Source: a candidate division WOR-3 bacterium (lineage in GTDB: Bacteria; Hydrothermota; Hydrothermia; LBFQ01; DSFT01). Taken from it: a stretch of DNA of 64,000 nt. Positions 12,964-59,778 of this stretch are shown one piece after another. How positions within the stretch are numbered: the stretch's first letter is position 1; every line of letters begins with the position of its first letter. The position numbers and the translations under genes are program-made. The stretch spans positions 1,723 through 65,722 of the forward strand of contig JBDRXL010000001.1 in assembly GCA_039802865.1 (NCBI GenBank), written 5' to 3'. A model generated the notes under the pieces. The model did not search any database, was not told the origin of the DNA, and worked only from the letters and a program-made list of their open reading frames with translations.

Positions 12964-12965
12964 GT

Positions 12966-17119: not shown

Positions 17120-17121
17120 AA

Positions 17122-43551: not shown

Positions 43552-43723
43552 TATTTACACAAAAATTTCTTGAAAATGCAAAAATTCCGATATTTGAAAA
43601 TAAATTAAAAGATGAAATAATAAAAATTACTTTGGAAATTTTAGATAAGAAAAATAAGAATGATATAAGTAATTTAGAAAATGAAATGGATAACATAATA
43701 AATAAATTTATAACTTTAAAATT

Positions 43724-44404
43724 TTGGTCTTGAAAGTTCTTGAAGTAAAAAATTTGAGTGTTTATATAGATGGTAAAGAGATTTTAAAAGATATTAATTT
43801 TTCGCTAAATGAATCAGAGTTATTAATTGTAATTGGTCCAAATGGTGGTGGAAAAACAACCCTTCTTAAAGCAATTTTAAAAATTATACCTTATAAAGGA
43901 GAAGTTTATATTAAAGAAAATTATAAAATTGGTTATTTACCACAAAACATAGAGAATATATCAAATATCCCAATCACCATTTATGAAATTTTAAAATTCT
44001 TTACAAATGTAAAAAAATCAAAAATTGAGGAAATTATGGAAATTTTTGAATTAAAAAATTATAAAAATGAGTTATTTAAAAATGTATCTGGGGGGTTAAA
44101 ACAAAGAACGTTAATTGCACTCAGTATATTAACAGGAAGTAATATCCTATTATTAGATGAGCCTACGAATAATCTTGATTTAAATGCACAGCGTGAATTT
44201 TATGAATTAATTAAAAAATTAAAAAAAGATTTTAAAATATCTACAATTATGGTAAGTCACGATATAGGGATTGTAAGTGCTATTGCTGATAATGTCCTAT
44301 GTTTAAATAAAGTTATGTATTATCATGGAGAACCAAGTTTAAATGAAAAATTGCTTTGTGAATTATATGGAAATGAAATAAAAATTATATTCCATGCTCA
44401 TTAG
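43724..44404 (+). CDS. Metal (Zn/Mn-type) ABC transporter ATP-binding protein
   Basis: Walker A GPNGGGKTT, signature VSGGLKQR and Walker B LLLDEPTNNLD. ZnuC-like size. TTG or GTG start region. Confidence 0.7.
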   Translation: MVLKVLEVKNLSVYIDGKEILKDINFSLNESELLIVIGPNGGGKTTLLKAILKIIPYKGEVYIKENYKIGYLPQNIENISNIPITIYEILKFFTNVKKSKIEEIMEIFELKNYKNELFKNVSGGLKQRTLIALSILTGSNILLLDEPTNNLDLNAQREFYELIKKLKKDFKISTIMVSHDIGIVSAIADNVLCLNKVMYYHGEPSLNEKLLCELYGNEIKIIFHAH

Positions 44405-45161
44405 TGCTATTATATTTAGTGGGATTATATCAATTATTTTAGGAATATTATCTTTTTTTGTAGTTTCAAGAAATTTAGAATTTGCAGGAACTGGTATATC
44501 ACATGCGGTATTTGGAGGAATTGCTCTTGGTATTGCATTAAAAATAAATCCCTTAATTAGTGCTACAATTTTTGCAATTCTCATTTCTATTTTAATTGTA
44601 GAAAGTTCATATAAACAATCAGAAAATACTGCAATTGGTATTATTTATCCATTCTCTATGGCAATTGGAATTATTATTCTTTCAAAATTTTCAAAAAATT
44701 ATCAAGACATTTGGTCATATCTATTTGGAAATATATTCTTTATTACAATTGAAGATTTCATAATTTTTTTAACTTATTCAATAATTGTAATTATTTTTAT
44801 TATTCTTACTTTCAAAAAGCTTATTTTTATAGCCTTCCATAAAGAATTAGCATTAGCTTATAAAATAAATGTAAAACTTTATGATTACTTATTTTTTATA
44901 ATGCTTTCGTTTGGAATAATTTTATCTGTTAAACTCCTTGGAATAATTCTTGCAACTGCTTTCTTAGTAATACCTTCTGCAATTAGTTTTAGATTATTAA
45001 AAGGAATAATAAAAAACATCATTTTTTCACCAATTATAGCATTTATCCTTACAACAATCGGCATTACAATATCTTATCTTTTTGATATTCCAACAGGTTC
45101 AACTATTATTGCTATTAGCTCAATTGCTTATTTAATTTTAATTTATATTTTTAGACAATAA
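44394..45161 (+). CDS. Metal ABC transporter permease (ZnuB/MntB-like)
   Basis: Polytopic hydrophobic protein that overlaps the ATPase gene. No adjacent substrate-binding protein gene. Confidence 0.6.
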   Translation: MLISAIIFSGIISIILGILSFFVVSRNLEFAGTGISHAVFGGIALGIALKINPLISATIFAILISILIVESSYKQSENTAIGIIYPFSMAIGIIILSKFSKNYQDIWSYLFGNIFFITIEDFIIFLTYSIIVIIFIILTFKKLIFIAFHKELALAYKINVKLYDYLFFIMLSFGIILSVKLLGIILATAFLVIPSAISFRLLKGIIKNIIFSPIIAFILTTIGITISYLFDIPTGSTIIAISSIAYLILIYIFRQ

Positions 45162-46311
45162 TTATAATTTCATCTTGTTTTATAGTAGTAATAATAGCTT
45201 GATTATCCTTAATATAAACATTTATCTCTGACCTAATACCAAATTCATTTTCAATATAAATGCCAGGTTCAATTGAAAATAAACAACCATTTAAAATTCT
45301 TCTATCATCATGTGTTTCAAAATTATCCATATTAACATTTATCCAATGAACATTTTTCCCAATAGAATGCCCTGTTCTATGAATAAAATACTTTAAATAA
45401 CCTTTCTTTTCAATATAGCTTCTTACAACATCATCTACTTCATATCCAAAAATTGGTAAATTTTTACTTAATTTTTCATTAATAAATTCAACCGCTAAAT
45501 CTCTTGCACTTTTAACAATCTCAAAGACTTCCTTATATTTCTCAAAAATTTTATCTCCATAAAAGCCAACCCAAGTAATATCATAATAAATACTATTTTC
45601 TTTATTAACTCTTGCCCAAATATCAATTAAAAATGGCTTATTATATTCAATTTTCTTAAAATTGGATTTTGTAGGCATATAATGTGGATTTGCAGAATTT
45701 TCAGAAATGGCAAAAATTGGATAATCACCATCTGTTGTTAAATTATTACAAATTAACTCATTATATATAAATTGTTGAGCTTCATATTCATTTTTAAAGT
45801 ACTTGATATTTTCAAATGTTTTAAATAAAACATTCTTTATAATTTCACCTGCTTCATAATGAGTTTTTATTTCATCTTCACTAATTAAAGAAAACATTTG
45901 AACTAAATTTGCAGAAGAAACAATTTCAATGTTTAAGCTTTTTAAAATTTCATAAGTTCCAGCATCTAATATAGAAATATATGGAATTGAGCAATTTTTG
46001 GAATATTCCATAGCAATTAACTTATAATTTTTTAAAATATCTTTTAATTTTTCTCTCAATTCAATCCATGTTAAATATAATATTTTCTTTCCAGGTAAAT
46101 GTTCAAGTTTATGTGGTTCAACCCTTGACAATAATTTTATTGGTTCTCCATCCTTTGGTATAAAATAAAACCATCTTCTTGTAAAATGCTCCTTTGGATT
46201 TATATTTAATATCCAATGAGCTATATAATTTCTATTTTGAAAATCATAAAATAACCATCCGTCTAAATTAAAATCCTTTAATAATGTTTGAATTTTTAAA
46301 ATTCTGTCCAT
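45151..46311 (-). CDS. M24-family metallopeptidase (Xaa-Pro aminopeptidase/prolidase-like)
   Basis: C-terminal pita-bread fold motifs HRTGHSIG and FSIEPGIY. Confidence 0.65.
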   Translation of the reverse strand: MDRILKIQTLLKDFNLDGWLFYDFQNRNYIAHWILNINPKEHFTRRWFYFIPKDGEPIKLLSRVEPHKLEHLPGKKILYLTWIELREKLKDILKNYKLIAMEYSKNCSIPYISILDAGTYEILKSLNIEIVSSANLVQMFSLISEDEIKTHYEAGEIIKNVLFKTFENIKYFKNEYEAQQFIYNELICNNLTTDGDYPIFAISENSANPHYMPTKSNFKKIEYNKPFLIDIWARVNKENSIYYDITWVGFYGDKIFEKYKEVFEIVKSARDLAVEFINEKLSKNLPIFGYEVDDVVRSYIEKKGYLKYFIHRTGHSIGKNVHWINVNMDNFETHDDRRILNGCLFSIEPGIYIENEFGIRSEINVYIKDNQAIITTIKQDEIIIIV

Positions 46312-46889
46312 GGAAGAATTTCTTTTATTCTTAAAATTTTCTCATCCTTTATATCTTTATAATCCCCAACCATTATAGTATCTGGTCCCAATTTAGCATA
46401 AACAATAAAACTATCAGGAGCAAATATATAATATCTTCTTATGATTTTTTGAGAGTTTGGTGTTTTTTCAAAGTAATAATAATTTATGGCATATCTTAGA
46501 TTTTCAGATTTTTCAACACTTATTAATGTCCTTGAAAAATAATCATTACCAGAAATTATAAACTCCCTATTAAAACCATTTACAAATGGATATGGGAAAT
46601 AAGGTAAATAACCGTCATAAGCAATAATAAGTTGGTCATTTTTAGAATATTCAATGGTTCTTCTTATCAAAATCATATCCCCAGTATATAATAATTTTTC
46701 TAAATTTCCTTCAAAATCCAAAACTATAAATAAACTATCATCTTTAATTGCTTTTATTTGAAATTCTTGATTATTTTGATCTAAATAAATCCAAGTAGAA
46801 AACTTTTTAAATGGTAAATAATTTGAAACTTCAATATCAATTATTTTAGAACAAGCAAAAAGAAATAAAAAAATTATAAACCTTGACAT
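46296..46889 (-). CDS. Lipoprotein of unknown function
   Basis: Lipobox FLFACSK. Confidence 0.4.
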   Translation of the reverse strand: MSRFIIFLFLFACSKIIDIEVSNYLPFKKFSTWIYLDQNNQEFQIKAIKDDSLFIVLDFEGNLEKLLYTGDMILIRRTIEYSKNDQLIIAYDGYLPYFPYPFVNGFNREFIISGNDYFSRTLISVEKSENLRYAINYYYFEKTPNSQKIIRRYYIFAPDSFIVYAKLGPDTIMVGDYKDIKDEKILRIKEILPWTEF

Positions 46890-47197
46890 CTCGGAAATGC
46901 ATTATATAACTTATTAAAGCTTTCAAGAATTTGATTATAAAATTTTAAAGGATTTTGAGCTTTAAAAAAAGAAAAACCTAATCTATAACCTTCATTTATA
47001 ATTCCTTTTAGACATTTATTTGGATTTTCATAAATTCTCAATAACTCTTCCCTTATATTTTCTGAATAACCAAAATATAAAATCTCATTTTTTTCATACT
47101 CAAAAATATAAAAAACACCAGGCTCATTTGGAGAAAACTTATTAATGTAAAAATCATTAAATGGATATTTCCTATGCCAATCTGGCCATTTATGCAT
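46874..47197 (-). CDS. Small GIY-YIG-like domain protein (tentative)
   Basis: Motif PGVFYIFEYEKNEILYFGYSENIREEL resembles the GIY...YIG...R pattern. Recurrent promoter motif directly upstream. Confidence 0.3.
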   Translation of the reverse strand: MHKWPDWHRKYPFNDFYINKFSPNEPGVFYIFEYEKNEILYFGYSENIREELLRIYENPNKCLKGIINEGYRLGFSFFKAQNPLKFYNQILESFNKLYNAFPRCQGL

Positions 47198-47216
47198 AGC
47201 TTGAAATTTTAAAGCT
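47198..47216 (-). promoter_or_regulatory. Near-palindromic promoter-like motif AGCTTTAAAATTTCAAGCT upstream of the small GIY-YIG-like gene
   Basis: Recurrent motif. Confidence 0.35.
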
Positions 47217-48333
47217 ACGTATTTTTAAATCTCCTCAAATAATCCTCCTTAAACTCATAAAAATAGCCTTCTCTGATAGCTTTTCTAATTTGTTCTAAAA
47301 ATTTTATAAAGAAATAAACAGAATGATAACTTGCTAAAATTCCTGCACTTACTTCATTTATAGAAAACAAATATCTAATATATGCTCTTGAATAATTTTT
47401 ACAAACTTTACAATCACAATTTACATCAAGTGGTCTTTCATCATTCTTATATTTTGCATTTTCTATCCTTAAAATTCCTTCACTTGTAAAAACTGTTCCC
47501 CTTCTTGAATTTCTTGTTGGAATAACACAATCAAACAAATCCACACCTAAGCTAATATATTCAAGAATTTCATCAGGTTTTCCTATTCCCATTAAATATC
47601 TTACTTTATTTTCAGGTAATTTTGGAACAAATTCCCTAACTACCCAATCCCTTTCTTCTCTTGGTTCTCCAAGTGCAAGTCCTCCAATTGCATAACCATC
47701 AAAATTCAAACCTAAAATCTCATTAAATGATTTTTCCCTTAAATTTTTATAAAATCCACCTTGAATTATACCAAATAATGCTCCTTTTGGTTTTACTTCT
47801 TCATAATATCTTTTTGATTCTATTGCCCATTTTGTTGTTAAATTAACACTTAATAAATTTTCTTCATAGCTTGAAGGATATTTCGTAGGATAATCCAAAA
47901 CCATCATTATATCTGAATTTAATTTCATTTGTATATCTATTACTTTTTTTGGTGTAAGCTCAACTATTGAACCATCAATATGAGAACGAAATATAAAACC
48001 ATATTCTTTTACTTTTCTAAACTTTGAAAGTGAAAATACTTGAAATCCACCAGAATCCGTTAAAATTGAACCATTAAAATTTATAAATTTATGAAGTCCT
48101 CCCATACTTTCTATCAAATCCTCCCCAGGTCTTAAATGTAAATGATATGTATTACATACAATAATTTGAGCTCCCATTTCCATTAAATCTAAAGTTGTTA
48201 ATGACTTTATCGTTCCTGTTGTGGCAACAGGCATAAAGTTAGGAAGCTCAACAATAGAAGTTTTTGTTTGTAAAACTGAATATCTTGCAAAAGTTCTATT
48301 ATCTTTCTTTATTATCTCAAATTTCAAACTCAT
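47215..48333 (-). CDS. tgt: Queuine tRNA-ribosyltransferase
   Basis: Conserved TGT core (LVELPNFMPVATTG, DLFDCVIPTRN) and zinc motif CDCKVCKNYSRAYIRYL. Confidence 0.85.
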   Translation of the reverse strand: MSLKFEIIKKDNRTFARYSVLQTKTSIVELPNFMPVATTGTIKSLTTLDLMEMGAQIIVCNTYHLHLRPGEDLIESMGGLHKFINFNGSILTDSGGFQVFSLSKFRKVKEYGFIFRSHIDGSIVELTPKKVIDIQMKLNSDIMMVLDYPTKYPSSYEENLLSVNLTTKWAIESKRYYEEVKPKGALFGIIQGGFYKNLREKSFNEILGLNFDGYAIGGLALGEPREERDWVVREFVPKLPENKVRYLMGIGKPDEILEYISLGVDLFDCVIPTRNSRRGTVFTSEGILRIENAKYKNDERPLDVNCDCKVCKNYSRAYIRYLFSINEVSAGILASYHSVYFFIKFLEQIRKAIREGYFYEFKEDYLRRFKNT

Positions 48334-49426
48334 TTAAAACACTTTCAAATAAATTGCTATCTATTAAAAAGCTAATCCTTAAATCTGATATCGTTAAAAA
48401 TGAAATAGGATATTTTATAATTTTTGAATGAATTTCAGGACTATTTAAAAGTCCATAACCAATTATTGAAACAAACTTCTTATTATCTTCAAAATCAAAA
48501 TTTTTAAACAAATTTGAAAATGCTTTAAAATCACTTGACTTTATAATTAAAACTGCCTTATCTACAAACTTTTGAAACAAAATAATTTGAATATCATTTT
48601 GAGAAAGTAAGTTCAATATCTCGTCATTATAATTCATAACAATTTTAATAACATCTAATTGAGTTATTGCGTTTATTTTTGGACTTTCAAGAAAATTCCC
48701 AACCATCGTCCCATCCCCCCTTTCAAAAGAGCTATAAATATAAAATGGAAAATTAAACTTTGCACTTAAACTAACCGCTCTTGAATGCATAACCTTTGCA
48801 CCAAAACTTGCCATTTCAATTAACATATCAAAACTAATTTTTTCAAATTTTTTGGAATTTTTTATTCTTGGGTCAATTGCATAAACTCCATCAACATCTG
48901 TATATATTTCACACTTTACATTTTCAAATTTTTTGGAAAGTTCAATAGCAATAGCAATTGCTGTTAAATCACTTCCTCCCCTTCCAAGTGTTGTAATTTC
49001 TTTTTCAATACTAACCCCCTGAAATCCAGCAATAATGGGAACTTCATTATTATTCAGGCAATCCAAAACTCTATTTAATTTTACTTCTATAATTCTTGCA
49101 TTATTAAATCTATTTTCTGTAATTATTCCAACCTGGGAACCTGTAAATGATTTAGAAGGTATTCCAATTTTATTTAAAGCAATTGACAATAATGCCATAG
49201 ATATTCTTTCCCCAACAGATATTAACATATCTACTTCTCTTTTAGGTGGATTTTCTGAAATCTCATATGCTAAATTTAATAAATTATCCGTAGATTTACC
49301 CATTGCTGAAACTACTACAACAGGTTTATAACCTTCATCTATTTTACTTTTTATAATATTGGCAACATTTATTATTCTATCTTTATTAGCGACAGAAGAG
49401 CCTCCAAATTTCATTACAACTATCAT
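48317..49426 (-). CDS. lysC: Aspartate kinase (monofunctional, with ACT domains)
   Basis: N-terminal VVMKFGGSSV and amino-acid kinase fold. About 369 aa. Confidence 0.8.
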   Translation of the reverse strand: MIVVMKFGGSSVANKDRIINVANIIKSKIDEGYKPVVVVSAMGKSTDNLLNLAYEISENPPKREVDMLISVGERISMALLSIALNKIGIPSKSFTGSQVGIITENRFNNARIIEVKLNRVLDCLNNNEVPIIAGFQGVSIEKEITTLGRGGSDLTAIAIAIELSKKFENVKCEIYTDVDGVYAIDPRIKNSKKFEKISFDMLIEMASFGAKVMHSRAVSLSAKFNFPFYIYSSFERGDGTMVGNFLESPKINAITQLDVIKIVMNYNDEILNLLSQNDIQIILFQKFVDKAVLIIKSSDFKAFSNLFKNFDFEDNKKFVSIIGYGLLNSPEIHSKIIKYPISFLTISDLRISFLIDSNLFESVLNEFEI

Positions 49427-50955
49427 CCTATCTCCTCTATCTTAAATCCATCTTCTGTTGTAAGAATAACAATATAATTTAAATTTTCTGGTGCATAAAT
49501 TGATAAAATTTGTTGATTATCTAAAATAGTATAATACTTTAATTTTGAAACAATATCTTTTAGGTCGCCTTTTAATAAAATTTTAAATCTAACCCCAAGT
49601 TTTCTTAAATTATCCAAGCTTTGAAATAGCTCATCATCAAACTTATCAATTATCAAGTCAAAATTCTCTTCAAGTTTTAAATTAACTTTATAATTACTAA
49701 AATAATTTTCAGTTTCTTCAATGAAATCTGTTAAATTTTCTGCTTCCATAGAAAATCCACATGCATTTTTATGCCCCCCATAGTTTATAAATAAATCTGA
49801 AAGAGCATTTAAAAATTCAAGCATATTATATCCATTTGGAGCTCTTATTTCTGCAACAATTTTGTGCTCTTCATCATACGAAATAGCAATAACTGGAACC
49901 TTAAATTTATCCTTAATTCTACTTGCTATATAACCTATGTGATATGGACTTAAATGTCTCAAATCCAAAAGAATATAACCTTTAATTCTTTTTATATTTC
50001 TTTCTATTCTTTTTACTTCCGCATCTAATTTTGTTGTAATTTCAAGAGAATACTTATAAATTCTACTAAGTTGTTCCTCTACAAAAACCTCATCATCAGA
50101 CAATAATAATTCTACAATTAAATGCCTTTCGCCCTCACTATTTATAGTTGAAAGTATAGGAATAAGACTTTCAATAGAAGCTCCTTGACCTGTTATTAAT
50201 GAATAAGCTCTAAATAATGGAAAACTATATTTATTTATAAGCTCCTTTGCTAAATCTACAATAATTTTATTTTCTGAAAATATAGGCATTCTATCAGATA
50301 TTGTGCCAAGTGCAGAATAAATAATAATTTCAGGATGATTTTCAAGTATAAAATTAATATCATAACCAAACTTTAAATTGATAAGACCAAGAGCAATTTT
50401 TAAGCTTAAACCAGAAGCAGAAAGATAAGGAATTGTTCCACCAAGTTTCGGATTTAAAATAATAGCGGAGGGTAATTCTTCTGGCATTTCATGATGGTCT
50501 GCAATAATTACACTTATACCATTTTCCTTTGCATACTCTACTTCTTCTATACTACTCAATCCTGTATCAACACATATAATAAGTTTAATTCCTTTACTAT
50601 AAGCAAAATCTACTCCCTGTCTTGTTAATTTATGTCCTTGACTTCCCCTTTTTGGAATATAATATATTGGATTTGAATTAAGAATTCTTAATACTTTTAG
50701 TAAAATTGCTGTTGAACTAACCCCATCCAAATCATCATGTCCCCAAATTAAAATCTCCTCTTTTGAAGAATATCTCAAAATTTCCTTTAATGCTAATTCC
50801 ATATTTGCAATTGCTCTATATGGCAATAAATTTTCAATAGTAGGATAAAATAAACTCTTTACCAAGTCTGTATCTACTATCCCTTTCCTAATAAGTGCTT
50901 TTGCTACTATCGGATGCACTTTATATTCATTTATAAGAACTTGCTCCACATTCAT
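49423..50955 (-). CDS. recJ: DHH-family single-stranded-DNA exonuclease RecJ-like
   Basis: Motifs GHDDLDG, ICVDTG and IIADHHE (DHH), plus a DHHA1-like C-terminal region. Confidence 0.65.
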   Translation of the reverse strand: MNVEQVLINEYKVHPIVAKALIRKGIVDTDLVKSLFYPTIENLLPYRAIANMELALKEILRYSSKEEILIWGHDDLDGVSSTAILLKVLRILNSNPIYYIPKRGSQGHKLTRQGVDFAYSKGIKLIICVDTGLSSIEEVEYAKENGISVIIADHHEMPEELPSAIILNPKLGGTIPYLSASGLSLKIALGLINLKFGYDINFILENHPEIIIYSALGTISDRMPIFSENKIIVDLAKELINKYSFPLFRAYSLITGQGASIESLIPILSTINSEGERHLIVELLLSDDEVFVEEQLSRIYKYSLEITTKLDAEVKRIERNIKRIKGYILLDLRHLSPYHIGYIASRIKDKFKVPVIAISYDEEHKIVAEIRAPNGYNMLEFLNALSDLFINYGGHKNACGFSMEAENLTDFIEETENYFSNYKVNLKLEENFDLIIDKFDDELFQSLDNLRKLGVRFKILLKGDLKDIVSKLKYYTILDNQQILSIYAPENLNYIVILTTEDGFKIEEIG

Positions 50956-50958
50956 AAT

Positions 50959-52148
50959 TTACCTCCTTATATACCAATCTATATAATTTTTTATCCCTTC
51001 TGCTATAGCCTTTGCTAACTTATTTTGATACTCTTCATCCATTAAAAGTTTTGCCTCCTCTGGATTTGAAATAAATCCAATTTCTATAAGTATAGAAGGG
51101 GCATAAACTTTCCTTAAAACATAAAATCCTGCTTGCTTTATTCCCCTATCATTTCTTCCATCTTTCAATTTTTCATGAACAAAGAATGCTAACTTTTGAG
51201 ATTCCTTTAAATAAGCATTTTGTAAAATATCTGAAACAATAAATTTCAGAATATCACTTTCCTCTACTTCATACTTAATAACTGAATTTTCAAGAGCTTC
51301 AACCGCTCTTTCTTCACTTGTTCTTGCAGTTGATAGAAAGTAAGTTTCTGGTCCAAATGCATTATCTACTTCTGAATAATTACAATGAATACTTACAAAC
51401 AATTTAGCATTATACCTTTTTGCTATTTCTGCTCTCTCGCTTAAAGATAAGAATATATCTTCTTCCCTTGTTAATATCACTTTAAACCCATACCCCATTT
51501 ACCAATTGCTCCTGGGTCCTTTCCACCATGTCCAGGATCAATAACAATATAACCAAAATTACCATATGAGTAAAGTATAAATTTTAAAACATAATTTTCT
51601 TTAATTTTTTTATAAGAGCCGTATTTAGTAGAAACGAAAATTTTAAAGAATGCCCCCTCTTTTGTATGGAAAATTGCGATAGAATCAATAATTCCACTAT
51701 CTCCTTTTATAAAATTAAATTTTGGATAAAAACCATCTGGAAGATGTATTAAGATAGCATTTTCTTCAAGCCATAATTGTTCTTTTGTATTTCTTGATAA
51801 TGTAAAAATTAAAACACAACTATCACTATTTTCAATAATTTGAAATTTCTTAATTGTTTCAATTGCCCTAAAAAGCTCATTTGATTTATAATCCCAAAAT
51901 ATCGGTATAGATGTTAGCCTATAAATTATTAAAGCGATATCTTTGCCATTTACATAGATTTTATTATCCCTAATCTCATATAAAAACTTAAAAGTTTTAT
52001 CCTTATGCCTAAATATTTTATTTTGAAAATCAAAATAAATTGTGTCATCTTTGTAGATTGCTAAATTATTCAAGAGCTTTATTGAATAAACGGATAATAT
52101 ACTATCTAATGGAAATAAGATGCCCATCATCTTTCGCTTATATACCAA
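50959..52148 (-). pseudogene. N-acetylmuramoyl-L-alanine amidase (Amidase_3) with an N-terminal domain. A 64-bp deletion relative to the neighbouring paralog frameshifts it into two ORFs (51477-52148 and 50959-51498).
   Basis: After ...GHGGKDPGAIGKWG the frame hits MGLK-stop. The catalytic part YGFKVILTREEDIFLSLSERAEIAKRYNAKLFVSIHCNY continues in another frame. Compare with the intact copy at 52127-52705. Confidence 0.5.
51375..51573. repeat. Tract of ~200 bp identical to 52423-52686 apart from a 64-bp indel (gene-conversion tract between amidase paralogs)
   Basis: Identity verified by eye (tacaatgaatacttacaaacaatttagcattatacctttttgctatttctgctctctcgcttaaagataagaatatatcttcttcccttgttaatatcactttaaaccca...ccatttaccaattgctcctgggtcctttccaccatgtccaggatcaataacaatataaccaaaattaccatatgagtaaa). 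Confidence 0.7.
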
Positions 52149-52705
52149 TTTACATATTCCCTTATCCCTTCCGCTATACCTCTTGCTAATAAGTATTGAT
52201 AATTTTTGTCTATAAGAAGATTTGCTTCTTCTGGGTTTGAAACATATCCTATCTCTATTATAACAGAAGGAATATAAATATTTCTTAAAAGGTAAAAATT
52301 CGCCTTTGTTATACCTCTACTTTTTGTAAATTCATTTATTCTTTGATTTATGAAAAATGCTAGTTTTCTTGATTCATTAGATAAGAAGAATACTTCAGGT
52401 CCTTTGATATTACTCATCTCAAAATAATTACAATGAATACTTACAAACAATTTAGCATTATACCTTTTTGCTATTTCTGCTCTCTCGCTTAAAGATAAGA
52501 ATATATCTTCTTCCCTTGTTAATATCACTTTAAACCCATACTCCTTTTTTAAAATATTTGCTATTTTTTTGCTTACTGATAATGTAATATCTTTCTCCTT
52601 TATACCCCATTTACCAATTGCTCCTGGGTCCTTTCCACCATGTCCAGGATCAATAACAATATAACCAAAATTACCATATGAGTAAAAGTTCAAAAAAAAC
52701 AACAT
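52127..52705 (-). CDS. N-acetylmuramoyl-L-alanine amidase, catalytic (Amidase_3) domain only (192 aa), no evident signal peptide
   Basis: Motif IVIDPGHGGKDPGAIG...KVILTREED...LFVSIHCNY...GYVSNPEEA. Confidence 0.55.
   Translation of the reverse strand: MLFFLNFYSYGNFGYIVIDPGHGGKDPGAIGKWGIKEKDITLSVSKKIANILKKEYGFKVILTREEDIFLSLSERAEIAKRYNAKLFVSIHCNYFEMSNIKGPEVFFLSNESRKLAFFINQRINEFTKSRGITKANFYLLRNIYIPSVIIEIGYVSNPEEANLLIDKNYQYLLARGIAEGIREYVNWYISER
52423..52686. repeat. Partner of the identical tract at 51375-51573, and contains the extra 64 bp (52541-52604)
   Basis: See the partner repeat. Confidence 0.7.
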
Positions 52706-54171
52706 AGTTTTCTTAGTAATCTACTTATTCCTTTTGGTATATCAGAGGGTTTAAATGTTAATTTATCAAAAAATTCACAACTTCTTGAATGTAAATATGC
52801 AGAAAGGACTGTTGAATTTATAGGACTTAAATGTTGTGCCAAAAATCCACCAATTAAACCACTTAACACATCCCCACTCCCCCCTCTTGCCAATTTTTCA
52901 TCCCCCCATATATTTAAAAATTTTAAATTATTTTGAACAATAACACTTGGATTGCCTTTTAACAAAAGAACACATTTATTTTTACTTGAAAAATCCAAAG
53001 AAATTTTAATTCTATTTCTATCTATTTCATATGGGTCCTTATTTATAATAAAACTCATTTCTCCAACATGGGGAGTAATAATTGTTTTTTCATTTAGTAA
53101 ATGAATTTTATCAGAAATTGCCCATATTCCATCCGCATCAATGATTTTTGGAACATCTAATTTTATTATTTCATTCATAAACTCTTTTACACTTTCATTT
53201 CTTGAAATACCACTTCCTACTACAATACTATTAAAATTCAAATTTTTTGAAATTAAATCAATAAAGCTTTCCTTTGAAAAATAACCATCCTTATCCTCAA
53301 CAGGAATTACAATACTTTCTGGAATTCTTCCAACAACATATGGATATATCTTTTTAGGAACAACTACATAAATTAATCCTACTCCACTACTCAAAGCACC
53401 TATTACATTTAAAATTACCGCACCTACAAAATCCTTACTTCCCCCAATTATTAAAACTTTCCCTTTCTCTCTTTTACTCTCATAACCCTTATATTTTGGC
53501 AATAAATTTAATACATCCTCTTCTTCAAGATATAAAAATCCTTTATTTTCAGCAAGTTCCTCTTCAATTCCAATATCTATTACTTCTAAATTCCCTCTAT
53601 GAATTTTCCCTTCAAATAAATAATGTCCAAGCTTTTCATAAGCAAATGTATAAGTATAATTGCTTAAAAAAGCTATATTTTCAATAAAACCTGTTTCACC
53701 ATCCACTCCACTTGGAATATCAACACTAACTTTAATAGTTTTTGAATTATTAGCAATTTCAACAGCTTTATAAAAATCATCTTTTAAAGAACCTTTAAAT
53801 CCTGTTCCAAATATCGCATCAACAATAACATCAAAATTCTTTACATCCTCAATAAATTCCTTTTCATCAAACTTTTTATATTCCACATTAAAAACTTTTA
53901 ATAACTCAAAATTTATTTTTGTTTCATTTGTTTTAAAATTTTCATCAAAAATTATTACTTTTACATATTTTTTAAATTTTTTTAACCATCTTGCTATTAC
54001 AAATCCATCTCCTCCATTATTCCCACTTCCACACATAATTAAAAAACTTTTTCCAAAATTTTTAATTCTTTCTGCTACTGATTTTCCTGCATTTTCCATC
54101 AATACAATTTGTGGAATTTTTGAACTATTATCAATTTCCTTCATTTCAGATGGTGATACAATCCTTCTCAT
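52690..54171 (-). CDS. nnr: Bifunctional NAD(P)H-hydrate repair enzyme Nnr (epimerase + ADP-dependent dehydratase; YjeF-N/YjeF-C)
   Basis: YjeF-N motif MCGSGNNGGDG and C-terminal carbohydrate-kinase-like GDVLSGLIGGFLAQ. Confidence 0.8.
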   Translation of the reverse strand: MRRIVSPSEMKEIDNSSKIPQIVLMENAGKSVAERIKNFGKSFLIMCGSGNNGGDGFVIARWLKKFKKYVKVIIFDENFKTNETKINFELLKVFNVEYKKFDEKEFIEDVKNFDVIVDAIFGTGFKGSLKDDFYKAVEIANNSKTIKVSVDIPSGVDGETGFIENIAFLSNYTYTFAYEKLGHYLFEGKIHRGNLEVIDIGIEEELAENKGFLYLEEEDVLNLLPKYKGYESKREKGKVLIIGGSKDFVGAVILNVIGALSSGVGLIYVVVPKKIYPYVVGRIPESIVIPVEDKDGYFSKESFIDLISKNLNFNSIVVGSGISRNESVKEFMNEIIKLDVPKIIDADGIWAISDKIHLLNEKTIITPHVGEMSFIINKDPYEIDRNRIKISLDFSSKNKCVLLLKGNPSVIVQNNLKFLNIWGDEKLARGGSGDVLSGLIGGFLAQHLSPINSTVLSAYLHSRSCEFFDKLTFKPSDIPKGISRLLRKLCCFF

Positions 54172-54557
54172 ACTAAGAATTTTAGTTTTAATAATAACTT
54201 TCCTTGACCTACCACTTCCCCCTCCTTACAATGAACTTTCTCAACCATTGCATTTTGGGGGCTTGTAATAATCATTTCCATCTTCATTGATTCAATTGTA
54301 AGTAAAACATCATCTTTATTCACAAAATCCCCCTCTTTTACATTCAACTTATTTATCTTCCCTGTAATAGGTGATATTATTTCCTCTTTACTATGCTCTT
54401 CAAAAGCAGTTGTTTCTAAAACTTTTTCAATAACATATATCCTTGAATTGTAAAATAATATAATCTTTTCTCCTTCTTTTTTAAGCAAAAGCTCTAACTT
54501 TAAATTATGGTCTATACTAACATCATAAACATTTCCGTAATTATCTTTTAACTTCAT
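54168..54557 (-). CDS. Biotinyl/lipoyl-domain protein (second biotin carrier-like protein in the window)
   Basis: Motif TIESMKMEMIITSP (E-x-MKM biotinylation motif). Start chosen at MKLKDNYG to avoid overlapping lspA. Confidence 0.55.
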   Translation of the reverse strand: MKLKDNYGNVYDVSIDHNLKLELLLKKEGEKIILFYNSRIYVIEKVLETTAFEEHSKEEIISPITGKINKLNVKEGDFVNKDDVLLTIESMKMEMIITSPQNAMVEKVHCKEGEVVGQGKLLLKLKFLV

Positions 54558-55035
54558 GTTTAGACCTCTTAAAAACACTATCAAAAATAAGTAAAAATAT
54601 AGCAATTGTAATAACACTATCTGCCAAGTTAAACACAAACCATCTTAAATGCTCATTTATTCCAATATCCAAAAAATCTACTACCATTCCCCTAAATATC
54701 CTATCAATGATATTTCCTAGGGCTCCCCCAATAATTAAACAATAAGCAAAAAAACTTAAAAAACTCTTTTCTTTAATTGCAAGATATAACACAAACAATG
54801 TAATTGCAATAGCAATAGGAGTATAAGGAAATTTTTCTCCAAAATTTAAACCAAATGCAACACCTGGATTATAAACAAATGTTAATCTAAAAAATTCCCC
54901 AAATACACTTATAGGTTGATGATAGGGTAGATTTTTTTCAACCAAAAATTTTGTTAATTGGTCTAAAAATACAATAATAGAAGGTATAACCAATAGGAAA
55001 GATATTTTATTTTTCATTTTATGAGATTTAGCCAA
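54541..55035 (-). CDS. lspA: Lipoprotein signal peptidase (signal peptidase II)
   Basis: Conserved LspA motifs FRLTFVYNPGVAFG and NIIDRI...VVDFLD. Four TM segments. Confidence 0.8.
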   Translation of the reverse strand: MAKSHKMKNKISFLLVIPSIIVFLDQLTKFLVEKNLPYHQPISVFGEFFRLTFVYNPGVAFGLNFGEKFPYTPIAIAITLFVLYLAIKEKSFLSFFAYCLIIGGALGNIIDRIFRGMVVDFLDIGINEHLRWFVFNLADSVITIAIFLLIFDSVFKRSKHEVKR

Positions 55036-55706
55036 TCACTTAAAAGGAAGTAAAATCTACTAATTAAAAGTGAAAATCTTGCCATAATTGTATAACCAAA
55101 ACTTGCTCCAAATGTAATCATTATTATAATAATTCCAAGCTTTGCTATTCCAAGTAAAATTCCTCTTTGTTCCGCAGAGAAATAGAAATAAACAAGACCT
55201 GTAATAACTCCAAGTAAAATTACAATTGGACCAATTATTGTAAGAGCACTAATTAAGAAATTAAGGGGAGATGATAAATCTAAGCTAAAACTTGGAGAAA
55301 GAAGGGGTAAGAATGTTGCAGAAACCTGGGGAAATATAAATCCTTGTATAGTAGCTACAATTCCAATACCAGAGCCCACTCCTACTACAAAAGCAATAGG
55401 TAATCTTGAAAGCCATACTAAGGAAGGAATTATATATGAAAAAATTTCAAGCCTTGTAAGAGTTAAAATACCAAGGAAAATAGCAATAGCAGTCATAGTT
55501 CTTACAAATATATGCTGTTGTGGATCAAGACCCATTTGAATAGATGGAACAATAGCTTGATTTAAAGTTAAAATTACACCATATCCAGCAGATACCCCTA
55601 CAAAGATATGCTCTGCAAGTTTATATATTGGATTATCACCAAATACAAATGACAATACCGCAAGGGTTAAAAATGCAGCTATCCAAATACCAATAATTTC
55701 TATCAT
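55014..55706 (-). CDS. Polytopic membrane protein of unknown function (operon member 4 of 4)
   Basis: About six hydrophobic segments. 4-nt overlap with the upstream gene. Confidence 0.4.
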   Translation of the reverse strand: MIEIIGIWIAAFLTLAVLSFVFGDNPIYKLAEHIFVGVSAGYGVILTLNQAIVPSIQMGLDPQQHIFVRTMTAIAIFLGILTLTRLEIFSYIIPSLVWLSRLPIAFVVGVGSGIGIVATIQGFIFPQVSATFLPLLSPSFSLDLSSPLNFLISALTIIGPIVILLGVITGLVYFYFSAEQRGILLGIAKLGIIIIMITFGASFGYTIMARFSLLISRFYFLLSDWLNLIK

Positions 55707-56545
55707 GTTAAAAACCTCCTAAGTATAAAGCCAACATTCCCAAAAAGTATAAATAATAAAATTATGCTATGAACAGAAACTTGCGAAACCATAATCAAAG
55801 ATGCAAGACCTTTTTTATTTGCTAAACTTTCATAATCATAAGCTCCTTTAAGTCCCCCTACAATTCCAACAATTTGTTTTGCTTGATAATATGGAAAGTA
55901 TTGAGGAGCCATAACCGCAGTAACTGCAAAAGCCATCTTTACACCGTATCTTGCTTGAACAATTTGAATCCAGAAATCTCCCGTTGCTCCCGCTTCAAAT
56001 CCAAATAATAAGTCTATATCCTTATAATTTAAAATCCCATCTTCCCCAACAATTTCTTTATATATTGGATAACTATCAAGTGGCTTATTGTAATAATCAA
56101 CTTGAAAAACATTCCTAAAATCCTCACTTAAACCTATCATAACCCCAACAACACCAGGTCTAAAACCAAGTATTAAATAATCTTCTCCATATTTTTTATT
56201 ATATTTCTTTGCAATTTTTTCTATTGCACTTATACCAACTATTAAACCTTGAAATTGCCAATGCGTCATCAATAGAACTTTTACATTCTTTTTGAAAGCT
56301 TGTTCTAAAACTACTTCTAAAACTGGTTGAAGTTCTGGATAAGCAGAAGGTCCATAGTCCGTGGAAAGTAATAATACATCTCCTTCTTTTAAGGATTCTA
56401 CCGCATTATAGGCTTCTTTAACTTCTTGCGTTGGTCTTGTAGGAAGAGAAGGTTTTAGAAATAGGGGAATAACTATGGAAAATATCAAAATTGTATAAAT
56501 TATTCTTCTATCTATAAGGGATAAAAAATCTAAAACTGCTCTCAT
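55703..56545 (-). CDS. Membrane-anchored protein of unknown function (operon member 3 of 4)
   Basis: N-terminal TM helix, a soluble domain and a C-terminal TM helix. 4-nt overlaps on both sides. Confidence 0.4.
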   Translation of the reverse strand: MRAVLDFLSLIDRRIIYTILIFSIVIPLFLKPSLPTRPTQEVKEAYNAVESLKEGDVLLLSTDYGPSAYPELQPVLEVVLEQAFKKNVKVLLMTHWQFQGLIVGISAIEKIAKKYNKKYGEDYLILGFRPGVVGVMIGLSEDFRNVFQVDYYNKPLDSYPIYKEIVGEDGILNYKDIDLLFGFEAGATGDFWIQIVQARYGVKMAFAVTAVMAPQYFPYYQAKQIVGIVGGLKGAYDYESLANKKGLASLIMVSQVSVHSIILLFILFGNVGFILRRFLT

Positions 56546-57336
56546 CTTATATAACCCCTTTCTATTCCAAATATAATTCTAAGAGAAAATGCAATAGAAC
56601 CAAGAGATAAACCAAGTCCTATTGCTCTTTGACCTGCACTATTTGGATAATTCATAATCCAATCGGAAAGTGCTGGAATAAAGTCAGAAAGAAGCATAGA
56701 AAATTGTGGTATGAATATAGATAATCCTAAGGTTAAGAAGAAAATACCAATAATATATCTTATTATAGAGCGAAATCCTGTATATTTTGTTCCCATATAA
56801 ATTAAATAGCTACCAGTTAATATCATAAAAGCAAAGAAAAATGGAATAAATATATAACCTCCAAATGGAACTCTCCCCATCATAACGATTGCTGCTGATA
56901 ATAAAAGTAATGTGGATTCTAAATTCCTAGCCCTAAATGCTCTATATGCTGCTGATGCAATAAAGAAAGCAAGTAATGAAAACATAGTAGCATCAAGTGG
57001 AAGGAAAACATTTTTAAATAACCATAAATAACTTGAATTTGGAACAAATGGACCCCCATATTTATACCATGCCCAAGCCCCCCAAAAAAGCGCTATAAAA
57101 AATGAAATTAAAAGAATAACACTATATACTGCATCTTTACTTTTTCTTCTAATTTTTCTGAAATGATAAAGAACAAGACTATCTATACCAAGCAAAAGTG
57201 CAAATCCAGAAACAATTACATACCACCTACTTGTAAGTTGTTCAATTTGCGTAAAAGGTTCTCTTGGTATAAAAAATAGAGCCATTATCAAAATTCCACT
57301 TATAAACGTAATGAATACTGGAAGTTGAACTTGCAT
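56542..57336 (-). CDS. Polytopic membrane protein of unknown function (operon member 2 of 4)
   Basis: Seven to eight hydrophobic segments. Confidence 0.4.
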   Translation of the reverse strand: MQVQLPVFITFISGILIMALFFIPREPFTQIEQLTSRWYVIVSGFALLLGIDSLVLYHFRKIRRKSKDAVYSVILLISFFIALFWGAWAWYKYGGPFVPNSSYLWLFKNVFLPLDATMFSLLAFFIASAAYRAFRARNLESTLLLLSAAIVMMGRVPFGGYIFIPFFFAFMILTGSYLIYMGTKYTGFRSIIRYIIGIFFLTLGLSIFIPQFSMLLSDFIPALSDWIMNYPNSAGQRAIGLGLSLGSIAFSLRIIFGIERGYIR

Positions 57337-57337
57337 T

Positions 57338-58459
57338 TTACCCCCCTACTTTAAAAATACTTGTATATGCTTCACTTAAACCTTTTAATATGTTATATTC
57401 AGAAAAGGTTGATAAAACAGCTCCAACAATAATAATTATAATAATTAACAATTTTGCAATATCTTCTGATTTAATTGTTCCAATTTCGGAAGGATTTTTG
57501 CTTAAATAAGCAGATGCAGCATAAAGCTCTTCACCAATAAGAGTATAATCACAAGATACTATAAAGAATGGTAATTGTGTAATTGCAGTAGTTCCAGCGA
57601 TATTTATAGCTCCTACATTATAAGAAGTCTCCGCCATTAACAAACTTTCTGCATAAAAGTAACCTTGATAAAAAGCTGCTCCTGGTCTTTCTCTAATTAC
57701 AATACCATTAAATCCAGCAGCAAATCCAAATTGTTCCGTTGTTAAAAACATTATATTATCTTCTTTATACAAATCTGGTCTTCCTGCTTCTGTAAAACCC
57801 TCTTTAACTGCTTCTCTTGAAGCAATCATTATAAGAGGGTCATTATTTGGAACAATTAAATCCATACCATAATTTGCAACTTTCCTAGCAACATATTTTA
57901 ATATTGCAATACCTGCTATAATGGAAGGATCACTTAAAGTTCCTATGCCTGTTGTATAAATTATTGGTCTTCCCATTTCTGTTGCCCTACCAACTGCATC
58001 ATCTATTGCTTCAAGCCCCGCAATTTTCCTAATATAAGGCACTTTACCCAACCTAGCAGAATAATAATAATAAAAGAAAAGAAGACCAAATACTAAAAGG
58101 AATACAAGCACAGGAAGCTTTTTAAAGTCAAAGTAAGGTTTATTTTCATTTTTATTTTTAATTAATAAAACAACAGGTTCAGACCACTTCGTATCCGCAT
58201 AAGTTGTATCATCAGAATAAGTTCTAATAAGATAGCTATATTTGACATTTGGTTTTACTGTTGTATCTATGAATTCCGTTTTATCCGTTTGTCCTAAAAG
58301 AAGTGGATGTTCCTTAGAGTTTTCTTCATCCGCTCTATAAACTTCATATTTTTTAATTTCCACAGGTGGAGCTTTCCACTTTAATATAACTTTATTTTCC
58401 TCCACCTTTATATTCAAGCTTTCTGCTTGAAAAGCGATATTAAATATAATGAAAAACAT
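57338..58459 (-). CDS. Membrane protein with an N-terminal FN3-like extracytoplasmic domain and a large second domain (operon member 1 of 4)
   Basis: FN3-like KVILKWKAPPVEIKKYEVYRAD...YSYLIRTY, a TM helix with poly-Tyr (FFYYYYS), a Gly-rich domain and a C-terminal TM helix. Confidence 0.4.
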   Translation of the reverse strand: MFFIIFNIAFQAESLNIKVEENKVILKWKAPPVEIKKYEVYRADEENSKEHPLLLGQTDKTEFIDTTVKPNVKYSYLIRTYSDDTTYADTKWSEPVVLLIKNKNENKPYFDFKKLPVLVFLLVFGLLFFYYYYSARLGKVPYIRKIAGLEAIDDAVGRATEMGRPIIYTTGIGTLSDPSIIAGIAILKYVARKVANYGMDLIVPNNDPLIMIASREAVKEGFTEAGRPDLYKEDNIMFLTTEQFGFAAGFNGIVIRERPGAAFYQGYFYAESLLMAETSYNVGAINIAGTTAITQLPFFIVSCDYTLIGEELYAASAYLSKNPSEIGTIKSEDIAKLLIIIIIIVGAVLSTFSEYNILKGLSEAYTSIFKVGG

Positions 58460-58465
58460 AAGTTC

Positions 58466-59176
58466 CTACAATTTTAAAGTATATAGCACTTGCTCATTTA
58501 TATTTAAAATTTTTATTTCATTTTCATTTATTACACCATATGTAAAGTGATTTATCCAATCACCAATGCATATAATTTTTTTATTTCCTTTTATCTCGCA
58601 CATTGGGCTGTGCAAGTGTCCAACTACTAATATATCTCCTTCAATTTTTTGAAAGTAATTCCATAACCAAGCAGGAACTTTATCAACATCATTATGAGCT
58701 TTCCTACTTGTTTTAGAAACAAATTTAGCAATTTTAATACCAAAATCTGGATGTATCATCTTAAATAACCAAACTAAAATAGGATTTTTTAAAATATCTC
58801 TTGTTTTAACTCTAAATTTTAAATCATCACCATGAGCAAAAACTAATTTCTTACCATCTATAATTAACTCATATTTTCCAATAATTGGCTTTATATTTAA
58901 TTTTTCAAAAAATTTTCCAATCCACAAATCATGATTTCCAGCTATATAAATAGTTTCAACATCTTTTGAAACCAAATATAATTCATTTAAAACCTTAAAG
59001 TAATGCGAAAATATCACACTATCATACTCAAACCAAAAATCAAATAAATCTCCAATTATTATAAATTTTTTTGCATTTTTTCTAACTCTATCCATTAAAA
59101 TTTTAAATTTTCTAAACTTTTCTTCCTCACTTTCAGAAAAGCCAAAATGAGCATCTGAAAATAGGTAAATTTCCAA
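58466..59176 (-). CDS. Calcineurin-like metallophosphoesterase (LpxH/YaeI-like fold)
   Basis: Motifs LFSDAHFG, GDLFDFW and GNHD. TTG start at 59174-59176. Confidence 0.6.
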   Translation of the reverse strand: MEIYLFSDAHFGFSESEEEKFRKFKILMDRVRKNAKKFIIIGDLFDFWFEYDSVIFSHYFKVLNELYLVSKDVETIYIAGNHDLWIGKFFEKLNIKPIIGKYELIIDGKKLVFAHGDDLKFRVKTRDILKNPILVWLFKMIHPDFGIKIAKFVSKTSRKAHNDVDKVPAWLWNYFQKIEGDILVVGHLHSPMCEIKGNKKIICIGDWINHFTYGVINENEIKILNINEQVLYTLKL

Positions 59177-59178
59177 AG

Positions 59179-59209
59179 TTTGAAATTTTAAACCTTTAAA
59201 ATTTTAAGC
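59179..59209. promoter_or_regulatory. Divergent intergenic region with two back-to-back promoter-like motifs (GTTTGAAATTTTAAAC and CCTTTAAAATTTTAAG)
   Basis: Each motif ends 2-3 nt before its start codon (TTG at 59176 on minus, ATG at 59212 on plus). Confidence 0.4.
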
Positions 59210-59211
59210 AT

Positions 59212-59778
59212 ATGAAATATCTATTAGATTTCAATTTTAGAAGGGGATATATCGTTTATCCATCAATTGTTGTAGTTGTAGGAGTTTTTGATAAGAATTT
59301 AAGGGCAAATTTTATGTCATGTATATGGAATACTCCTCTTTCATTTGATCCACCGCTTTATGGAGTTTCAATATCTCCTACAAGAGCAACATATAATTTA
59401 ATTTTAGAAAGAGAAGAATTTTCTATATGTTTTTGGCCATTTGATAAAGTTCAAGATGTTGAATTTTTTGGAACTTATAGTTATAGAGAAATTGATAAAT
59501 CAAAAGATATTAAATTAATTGAAAGTATTAAAACAAAAACTCCAATTCCAGAGAGAGCATATGCTGTTCTTGAATGCTCTTTATATGATTATACAACTTA
59601 TGGAGACCATACATTGTTCGTAGGTAAAATTCTTGTTATACATTTTGATGAAAATTCAACTTATGAGCTATTTAATATGCCTGTTTTAGATCTAAATAAA
59701 AAGAAACCTGTTTTATATCTTGGAAATGGCATATATTTAACCGTAGATGAAAAAACTATATTGAATTTGAGAAAGTAA
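59212..59778 (+). CDS. Flavin reductase-like (FMN-binding split-barrel) protein
   Basis: Flavin_Reduct-like pattern (FMSCIWNTPLSFDPPLYGVSISP...). About 188 aa. Confidence 0.55.
   Translation: MKYLLDFNFRRGYIVYPSIVVVVGVFDKNLRANFMSCIWNTPLSFDPPLYGVSISPTRATYNLILEREEFSICFWPFDKVQDVEFFGTYSYREIDKSKDIKLIESIKTKTPIPERAYAVLECSLYDYTTYGDHTLFVGKILVIHFDENSTYELFNMPVLDLNKKKPVLYLGNGIYLTVDEKTILNLRK

Follow-up and report, generated by a model that had tools for sequence, protein, structure and literature searches.

An identical tract shared by adjacent long and short amidase genes in a candidate division WOR-3 genome, and a private 64-bp loss in the long gene

We analyzed two adjacent Amidase_3 genes in a 64-kb stretch of DNA from a candidate division WOR-3 bacterium (contig JBDRXL010000001.1; this whole stretch of 64,000 nucleotides (nt) is termed the window). 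Both are real peptidoglycan amidase genes, lying next to each other in one minus-strand operon of a low-GC hot-spring bacterium. The long gene encodes an N-terminal region and a catalytic domain, and the short gene, located upstream of it, encodes a catalytic domain only. The two genes share a tract of 264 nt that is identical in both, except that 64 nt are absent from the long gene, which is thereby frameshifted. The features of the two genes are listed below (aa, amino acids; ORF, open reading frame).

50959..52148, minus strand: long AmiC-like amidase gene, frameshifted here (ORFs; the repaired product is database protein P0001, 410 aa; AlphaFold; Foldseek).
51575..52127, minus strand: N-terminal beta-rich region of the long gene, about 184 aa in two sub-domains, the second AMIN-like (no Pfam match; structure model and fold matches).
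51209..51331, minus strand: segment of 41 codons (123 nt) present only in the long gene, which aligns to the regulatory domain of AmiA/AmiB (alignment gap against the short gene; 8c2o, 8c0j).
52127..52705, minus strand: short amidase gene, 192 aa, Amidase_3 domain only, without regulatory insert and without signal peptide (ORF, Pfam, structure-sequence alignments).
52423..52686, minus strand: upper copy of the tract, 264 nt, codons 7–94 of the short gene (exact match; the same 264 nt occur twice in contigs L001, L004, L005, and L006).
51375..51574, minus strand: lower copy of the tract, 200 nt, i.e., 264 minus 64 (exact match).
52542..52605, minus strand: 64 nt present in the upper copy only, encoding IKEKDITLSVSKKIANILKKE including the zinc-ligand Glu (alignment, exact match).
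51490..51493, minus strand: deletion junction with the microhomology ATAC, GTAT in gene orientation (exact match).

The limits of the tract were determined by exact-match extension on the plus strand. Positions 51375–51493 of the lower copy matched 52423–52541 of the upper copy over 119 nt, and 51490–51574 matched 52602–52686 over 85 nt. The two exact blocks overlap by 4 nt, ATAC (51490–51493), in the lower copy, and the placement of the absent 64 nt is ambiguous by the same 4 nt, from 52538–52601 to 52542–52605. The base-for-base identity reported in the first-pass annotation was reproduced, with the lower copy ending at 51574 instead of 51573; the absent segment that it placed at 52541–52604 falls inside the ambiguous range, and the flanking direct repeat, given there as ATA, is ATAC. 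An imperfect 11-nt repeat, AAATGGGGTAT and AAAAGGAGTAT in gene orientation (9/11 identical), precedes both sides of the junction. Across the junction the sequence is GGTAAATGGGGTAT joined directly to GGGTTTAAAG, and the intact allele reads GGTAAATGGGGTATAAAGGAG. The flank upstream of the tract that is specific to the lower copy is …AAAATTTATAC; the flank sequence …GAAAATTATGTTTTAAAATTTATAC ends immediately before the tract, and the junction is 81–85 nt farther on.

As had been described, the loss splits the full-length gene into two ORFs, 51477–52148 (223 aa from TTG, 216 aa from ATG) and 50959–51498 (179 aa). When the 64 nt were put back, a single in-frame gene of 1254 nt from the TTG start was obtained, and its product from ATG was identical to P0001 (100% identity over 100% of the length).

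The two genes are otherwise diverged, in agreement with the earlier description of adjacent minus-strand paralogs. Over the 97 codons that could be aligned outside the tract, they share 65.3% nucleotide and 54.6% amino acid identity, with a nonsynonymous divergence (dN) of 0.32–0.34 and a synonymous divergence (dS) of 1.6–1.8. Within the 264-nt tract there was no difference, and identity falls within a few bases at each end. The chance of 200 consecutive matches at the background of 65.3% is approximately 1e-37. In the 64-kb window, the amidase tract was the only perfect repeat among repeats of at least 60 nt.

To describe the long gene, Pfam, an AlphaFold model, and Foldseek were used. The Amidase_3 family (PF01520; cut-off 27 bits) matched the C-terminal fragment in the window with 132.5 bits over profile positions 40–174, and the N-terminal fragment with 20.9 bits, below the cut-off, with only the first 17 residues of the domain recognized; the repaired protein P0001 carries PF01520. 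The model, built from an alignment of 37 homologs, had a mean predicted local distance difference test score (pLDDT) of 88.9. Residues 1–187 formed a confident beta-rich region (pLDDT above 90 over residues 11–200, with residues 1–13 structured), and residues 193–410 had the Amidase_3 fold, in which residues 291–312 had a pLDDT below 50. The top Foldseek match was E. coli AmiC (4bin; 358 columns, root-mean-square deviation 20, template modelling score approximately 0.5, the orientation of the domains being different), followed by AmiA and AmiB and, lower, by the AMIN/B2 domains of PilQ (4av2, E 1e-3; 4aqz, E 7e-3). Pfam gave no AMIN match in the N-terminal region.

The long protein aligned in one stretch, through the 41-residue segment, with AmiA (8c2o) and AmiB (8c0j, 3ne8); against the insert-less enzymes 5emi and 1jwq, the alignment was split in two. 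In E. coli AmiA, the regulatory domain consists of a blocking helix, which a glutamate latches onto the zinc, and a hydrophobic interaction helix that binds the LytM domain of EnvC, and the latch, Glu167, is placed at the ERENR motif (PMC10268282). E301-N302 of the long protein aligns to the Glu-Asn of this motif and ILKFIVSDIL to the interaction helix; E301, N302, D321, and Q324 are invariant in the alignment of 37 homologs. At the level of sequence, the long gene contains a regulatory insert of the AmiA/B/C type. By analogy with the E. coli enzymes that it resembles, the long protein would be an AmiC-like division amidase dependent on an activator, presumably a LytM protein. No activator was identified, in the absence of a systematic search for one; a gene with an FtsX extracellular domain (PF18075) was seen near the long-amidase ortholog in L010.

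The zinc ligands and the catalytic Glu of the intact allele P0001 (H200, E215, H269, and E370) are invariant in the homologs. In the window these residues do not occur on one polypeptide: H200 is on the 223-aa ORF, H269 and E370 are on the 179-aa ORF, and the codon of E215 (EKD motif) lies in the deleted 64 nt. Across the clade the long gene is under purifying selection, with dN of 0.16–0.23 against dS of 0.8–1.4.

By inspection only, no recognizable Tat or Sec signal was found in the long amidases of the clade. These proteins (P0001–P0007) begin with MGILFPLDS or MLLLDS, aligned to the start of the first folded domain, and more distant homologs (P0021, P0029, P0034, and P0039) have a hydrophobic leader ahead of the same motif. 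In the window, the frame can be extended upstream only to a TTG at 52148 (MVYKRK...), and the sequence of the sister species L013 does not permit this extension. Polymorphism was also seen within the long gene: L001 and L015 have AGGG where other strains have GAAA, 263–266 nt past the end of the tract (window about 51109–51112), and differ at a further A/G site 315 nt past it (about 51060). Small conversions were considered as the origin of both polymorphisms and rejected, because the bases differ from the homologous bases of the short copy.

The short protein matched PF01520 with 186.4 bits over residues 16–182 (profile positions 1–173 of 174). Only 15 residues precede the domain, therefore there is no room for a signal peptide, and the upstream copy is, as first described, intact and a catalytic domain only. 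The missing signal peptide does not distinguish the two copies, however, since the clade of the long gene also lacks a recognizable one. With Nostoc AmiC2 (5emi, E 1e-36) and CwlV (1jwq, E 3e-33), the short protein aligned in one end-to-end stretch; with AmiA and AmiB it aligned in two, the whole 41-residue insert being absent. Read from the sequence against the structure alignments, it keeps H22, E37, H91, and E151. Its 3′ half has a dN/dS of approximately 0.2 against the long gene, which suggests a history under constraint as a functional amidase gene. By comparison with the insert-less enzymes, the short enzyme would be expected to act without a LytM activator.

The ancestry of the two genes was next considered. 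In sister species, whose long amidases share 71–78% amino acid identity with that of the window, the order is yjeF, long amidase, and recJ-like gene; the short gene is absent, and the 3′ end of yjeF directly overlaps the start of the long amidase gene. This arrangement indicates that the long gene is ancestral. No ortholog of the short gene was detected in 5.8 billion clusters, where the best matches other than itself were a 232-aa hybrid described below, partial long amidases, and then proteins of at most 47% identity. A scan of one genome for each of 185,579 species, among whose results the window's own species had no representative, also gave no ortholog and matched only the long amidases of sister species. 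In an exhaustive comparison of the C-terminal 100 residues with 1.84 billion representatives, the nearest proteins were the long amidases of its own clade (56% identity to the cluster representative and 54–61% to individual long amidases), and a word-index search with the 3′ half matched only itself. A neighbor-joining tree of a 97-residue region did not resolve the position of the short gene, which was on a long branch with bootstrap values below 50, and dS values for the 3′ halves are near saturation and do not fix the age of the duplication. Since its nearest relatives are the long amidases of its own clade and no ortholog was found elsewhere, the short gene is best regarded as a diverged paralog of the long amidase catalytic domain that is found only in the window's species.

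The tract departs from this divergence. It is 100% identical to the paralog and 83–87% identical in nucleotides to the long-gene orthologs, as would be expected of so conserved a part of the long gene, and the 3′ half of the short gene has at most 70% nucleotide identity to any long gene. Relative to the closest sister species (L013), dS was 0.65 for the tract, 0.81 for the 3′ part of the long gene, and 1.19 for the 3′ part of the short gene. Upstream of the tract, a weak similarity (approximately 33/45 nt) runs into the 3′ end of yjeF, which is compatible with older homology beyond the reach of the conversion. The absence of any difference over 264 nt, against a dS of 1.6–1.8 outside, and the occurrence of the repeat in independent assemblies support the gene conversion put forward in the first-pass annotation; we regard the tract as the trace of a real ectopic gene conversion between anciently diverged paralogs. 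Because the tract resembles long-gene sequence, the long gene was probably the donor and the short gene the recipient, by a small margin.

We then compared the locus with 11 other assemblies of the species, which have approximately 99.4–100% nucleotide identity to the window. Their states at the locus were as follows.

JBDRXJ, JBDRXK, JBDRXN, JBDRXP, CBFGIJ, and JAUQPS: both genes present, long gene intact (410/411 aa).
JBDRXS: intact long gene, with the contig broken within the upper tract.
JBDRXM, JBDRXO, and JBDRXR: one tract and a 232-aa hybrid gene, with exact loss of one repeat period of 1112 bp.
JBDRXQ: contig stops within the lower tract, after exactly 127 nt.

Full-length alleles were thus present in related strains, as an intact protein of 410 or 411 aa, and the 64 nt are present at this site in these seven conspecific assemblies. 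In the six that have both genes, the long gene is identical to the window's gene after repair. Two perfect 264-nt tracts were found in JBDRXJ, JBDRXN, JBDRXP, and CBFGIJ, and JBDRXK and JAUQPS have a single-nucleotide polymorphism (SNP) in the upper tract. In JBDRXS the locus lies on two contigs, one ending 117 nt into the upper tract and the other starting 127 nt before its end. The contigs that end 127 or 117 nt into the tract are L002, L015, and L035. Logan contigs of this species occur in SRR27730045, SRR21619498, and SRR27730012, and Logan contigs built with k = 31 start 30 nt inside the tract. Breaks of this kind are characteristic of a genuine repeat that exceeds k, which indicates that the repeat is real.

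The SNP of JBDRXK (L025/L027, GCA_039802845.1) is a C-to-G change at L025 6271, homologous to window 52435, which gives the zinc-ligand change H91D in the short amidase. The long gene is intact on the same contig, the reverse of the situation in the window. The same variant appears to be carried by JAUQPS (L034, GCA_030550205.1). The 232-aa hybrid, P0009, lies between yjeF and the recJ-like gene in L003/L016/L029 (GCA_039803005.1), L017/L030 (GCA_039802925.1), and L028 (GCA_039802905.1). The loss corresponds to window 51575–52686 and joins the start of the short gene in frame to the regulatory insert and C-terminus of the long gene. This 1112-bp loss makes no new k-mers, and loop skipping by the assembler is a more likely origin than true recombination between the repeats. 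In a study of WOR-3 metagenome-assembled genomes (MAGs) from Tengchong springs, the MetaBAT minimum was 2000 bp (PMC12542636); if the sibling MAGs came via this or a similar pipeline, a loop contig of approximately 1.1 kb would fall under that minimum. As a separate observation, SNP density against the siblings shifts across the locus, with 0–2 differences per 3–8 kb on the yjeF side and 2–32 per 3–9 kb on the recJ-like side (window 43423–51500 and 51490–59787 compared with L001–L006, L015, L017, and L025).

The 64-bp loss itself was found only in the window. A 26-mer spanning its junction was absent from all 11 other assemblies, none of which therefore gives the deleted allele a second support. 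The 179-, 216-, and 217-aa ORF products of this allele had no exact database record, and the deletion was seen neither in the 14 contigs found through yjeF nor in the 7 found through the recJ-like gene. The lower-copy flank and the junction were unmatched in JGI metagenome contigs, a search that is uninformative in that the species is not represented there.

On the basis of these results, we propose the following sequence of events. At the 5′ end of the catalytic domain, an ectopic conversion has replaced 264 bp and made the copies identical there, with the long gene as the most likely donor. In the population sampled, the long gene would then have lost 64 bp within the tract between two GTAT microhomologies, by slippage or microhomology-mediated deletion. 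This loss would remove the zinc-ligand Glu codon and shift the frame, leaving the long gene a pseudogene here beside an intact short paralog, while other strains retain an intact long gene. We consider that the complete account, consisting of an ancestral AmiC-like gene, a short paralog restricted to the species, conversion from the long gene, and a subsequent real loss of 64 bp, has about an equal chance of being right or wrong.

The probability that the 64-bp deletion is a real strain allele was, taken by itself, also judged to be evenly balanced. The junction creates new k-mers, which a de Bruijn assembler cannot write without reads; this favors a real deletion, and the need for read support slightly favors a genuine strain allele. 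The junction is close enough to the lower-copy-specific flank (81–85 nt) to be assigned to the lower copy by 127-mers or 150-nt reads. Relative to the intact conspecific alleles, the window's gene is frameshifted with microhomology at the junction (4 nt perfect, 11 nt imperfect), typical of slippage, which also favors a real event. Short deletions segregate elsewhere in the species, because the window and L002 both lack segments of 19 and 34 nt that are present in L001 and in the window's own inverted paralog 43 kb away. The lesions found in opposite copies in different strains, H91D in the short gene and the 64-bp loss in the long gene, fit functional redundancy of the two genes. Several observations weigh against the proposed account. 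The deletion is private, with 0 of 11 other assemblies carrying it, and it is the only private indel in approximately 20 kb compared, situated inside the 0.8% of the window that is perfect repeat. The same repeat visibly disturbed 5 of the 11 sibling assemblies, three by the 1112-bp collapse and two by contig ends 117–127 nt into the tract, and the deletion inactivates a gene that is under purifying selection across the clade. The direction of conversion, moreover, depends on small dS differences near saturation, in a tract that is the most conserved part of the domain.

These points lead to the rival explanation that comes closest, namely that the anatomy and the conversion are as described but the 64-bp loss arose in assembly, scaffolding, or polishing, and the organism keeps an intact long amidase of 410 aa. 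We give this somewhat less than an even chance. It would explain why the lesion falls exactly within the one long repeat of the window that is perfect, where assemblers had trouble in siblings, and why no other assembly shares the 64-bp loss, and the repaired protein is 100% identical to P0001. The study of Tengchong WOR-3 MAGs, which lists QQ_bins.197, one of the sister-species MAGs used here, reports assembly with SPAdes from paired 150-bp reads (insert of 300 bp) and a second assembly after read recruitment (PMC12542636). A 264-bp repeat with an 848-bp spacer is unspannable by such reads, and the sibling MAGs are named as scaffolds. However, the window may come from another pipeline, and the junction k-mers could not have been produced by a de Bruijn assembler on its own. 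Assembly is known to fail at this repeat by breaking or by skipping the loop, not by losing sequence inside it, and the junction, which joins tract positions 81–85 to 146–150, matches none of the k-defined contig ends in siblings (117, 127, 138, and, in Logan, 235). A merge of contig ends at a k-mer was specifically considered and rejected: the 3′ block of 119 nt equals a common MEGAHIT k, but the 5′ block of 81–85 nt fits none, and the agreement was taken as coincidence. Programmed frameshifting or bypassing was also dropped, as sequence is absent relative to the intact alleles and a catalytic residue is removed.

Other explanations concern the tract and the variants around it. That the perfect repeat is itself a product of consensus or chimeric assembly of two strains, the genes being truly diverged throughout, is hardly credible: every genome here was assembled from a metagenome, and mixed strains are likely, but two perfect tracts occur in four assemblies of two accession series and tracts with one SNP in two more, three series in total, and contigs elsewhere, including those of Logan at k = 31, stop k nt into the tract, which shows that the same k-mers stood in two contexts in the raw reads. 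The tract might instead be the footprint of the making of the short gene, if 264 bp of the long gene, together with approximately 45 bp upstream, had recently been duplicated and joined to the 3′ half of an amidase that was older, foreign, or relocated. The occurrence of the short gene in this species only, the weak similarity upstream of the tract, and the poorly supported long branch of the 3′ half would agree with such a fusion. On the other side, this 3′ half is most like the long amidases of its own clade and like nothing else in the 1.84 billion representatives, its dN/dS suggests a long history as a functional amidase gene, and the tract boundaries keep both frame and domain, as expected of conversion between aligned homologs and less so of illegitimate fusion. 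We regard this origin as improbable; the present outcome, two genes with an identical tract, is the same by either route. Slightly less improbable, though still unlikely, is that the 64-bp deletion, the 1112-bp in-frame fusion, and the H91D allele are all real co-existing variants and that the 264-bp cassette is a recombination hot spot. In that case the cassette would repeatedly give rise to three architectures in hot-spring populations, namely a form with both regulation and targeting domains, a bare domain without regulation, and a bare domain with it. The two amidase genes would be redundant enough that either could be lost, and the locus would show domain shuffling of LytM-regulated amidases in nature, within a clade whose division amidase also has no recognizable export signal.

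Taken together, the locus shows an event of an ordinary and well-understood type, a partial gene conversion, plus one putative private frameshift, and none of it should come as a surprise to specialists in cell-wall enzymes or in genome evolution. Its main value is for annotation and quality control: loss of the long amidase from this genome should be accepted only with support from reads, and the 232-aa "amidase" of three sibling MAGs is probably a collapsed repeat. Biologically, it is a small and clear-cut case in which a regulated AmiC-like amidase and an insert-less paralog, seen only in this species, have undergone partial conversion in an uncultured thermophilic phylum. If the structural variants proved real, the two enzymes would be redundant, and the regulatory and targeting modules of division amidases would be sheddable in nature.

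The neighboring genes include the following.

52690..54171, minus strand: bifunctional YjeF_N/Carb_kinase gene (NAD(P)H-hydrate repair), upstream neighbor (Pfam; sister-species loci).
49423..50955, minus strand: DHH/DHHA1 (RecJ-like) gene, downstream neighbor (ORF, Pfam).

The tightly packed order on the minus strand is lspA, a biotin/lipoyl protein gene, yjeF, short amidase, long amidase, recJ-like DHH gene, an amino-acid kinase gene, and tgt. Starts and stops overlap in this series, and no terminator-like site lies between the genes. The yjeF stop and the start of the short gene share an overlap of 16 nt, the TGA that ends the short gene overlaps with the long-gene ATG, and a strong ribosome-binding site for the RecJ-like gene, AAGGAGG, sits in the last codons of the long amidase gene. 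A promoter and terminator scan of 49000–56000 gave no more matches than shuffled sequence. Rfam found one tRNA only in the window, and no RNA or regulatory element that would explain the conservation of the tract was found.

Database annotations assign proteins that match those of the window exactly or almost exactly to candidate division WOR-3 MAGs, and the GC content of the window is 26.4%. The sister-species MAG QQ_bins.197 belongs to the class Hydrothermia, order LBFQ01, family DSFT01, and comes from Tengchong hot-spring sediment, with a GC content of 27.6% (PMC12542636).

Other repeated or variable loci were also seen in the window. The 19- and 34-nt losses lie at 59787–59860, upstream of and at the 5′ end of a DUF3782 gene (59863–60357), with L001 2780–2990 and the paralog at 16760–17160, in ORF 16019–17119, as counterparts; they shorten the DUF3782 gene from 201 aa in L001 to 164 aa, and the two paralogs share stretches of 79–91% identity. 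Adjacent, overlapping genes of SMC_N/AAA-type ATPases at 11960–12955 and 12933–13970 (plus strand) have a 300-nt stretch that is 73% identical, without an identical tract. A 300-nt direct repeat of 73% identity at 840–1139 and 1377–1676 (plus strand) lies in ORFs 640–1158 and 1183–2628, which are adjacent genes with no significant Pfam match.

Finally, the locus was compared with known systems. The long gene is like E. coli AmiC (4BIN) and the AmiA/AmiB group (8C2O, 8C0J, 3NE8) in its Amidase_3 domain with H200, E215, H269, and E370. It is also like AmiA in its regulatory insert, with E301-N302 at the Glu-Asn of ERENR and the hydrophobic ILKFIVSDIL on the interaction helix, and its beta-sandwich N-terminal region, which may correspond to an AMIN domain, gave fold matches to the AMIN domain of AmiC and the B2 domains of PilQ. 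It differs from AmiA/B/C in having no Pfam AMIN match, an extra N-terminal sub-domain, and no recognizable Tat or Sec signal in its clade; Asp135 of AmiA is replaced by Asn in the long protein, and the window's copy is frameshifted. The short gene resembles the catalytic domain of Nostoc AmiC2 (5EMI) and Paenibacillus CwlV (1JWQ), aligning in one end-to-end stretch without a regulatory insert, but AmiC2 and CwlV are exported, with targeting domains or signals, whereas the short protein is a bare 192-aa domain.

The sibling assemblies, with breaks 117–127 nt into the tract or the 1112-bp skip, show what is expected of short-read MAG misassembly, i.e., loop skipping and breaks at repeats longer than k. 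The window is unlike them, as its 64-bp loss creates a new junction.

RecA-dependent gene conversion drives the concerted evolution of duplicated bacterial genes, an example being tufA/tufB of Salmonella and E. coli. The amidase tract is similar in that a sharply bounded segment of a paralog pair has been made or kept identical while orthologs diverge. It differs in that only 264 bp of an otherwise 65%-identical pair are homogenized, the copies are in tandem, 848 bp apart, and the repeat also permits a 1112-bp deletion that fuses the two genes in frame.

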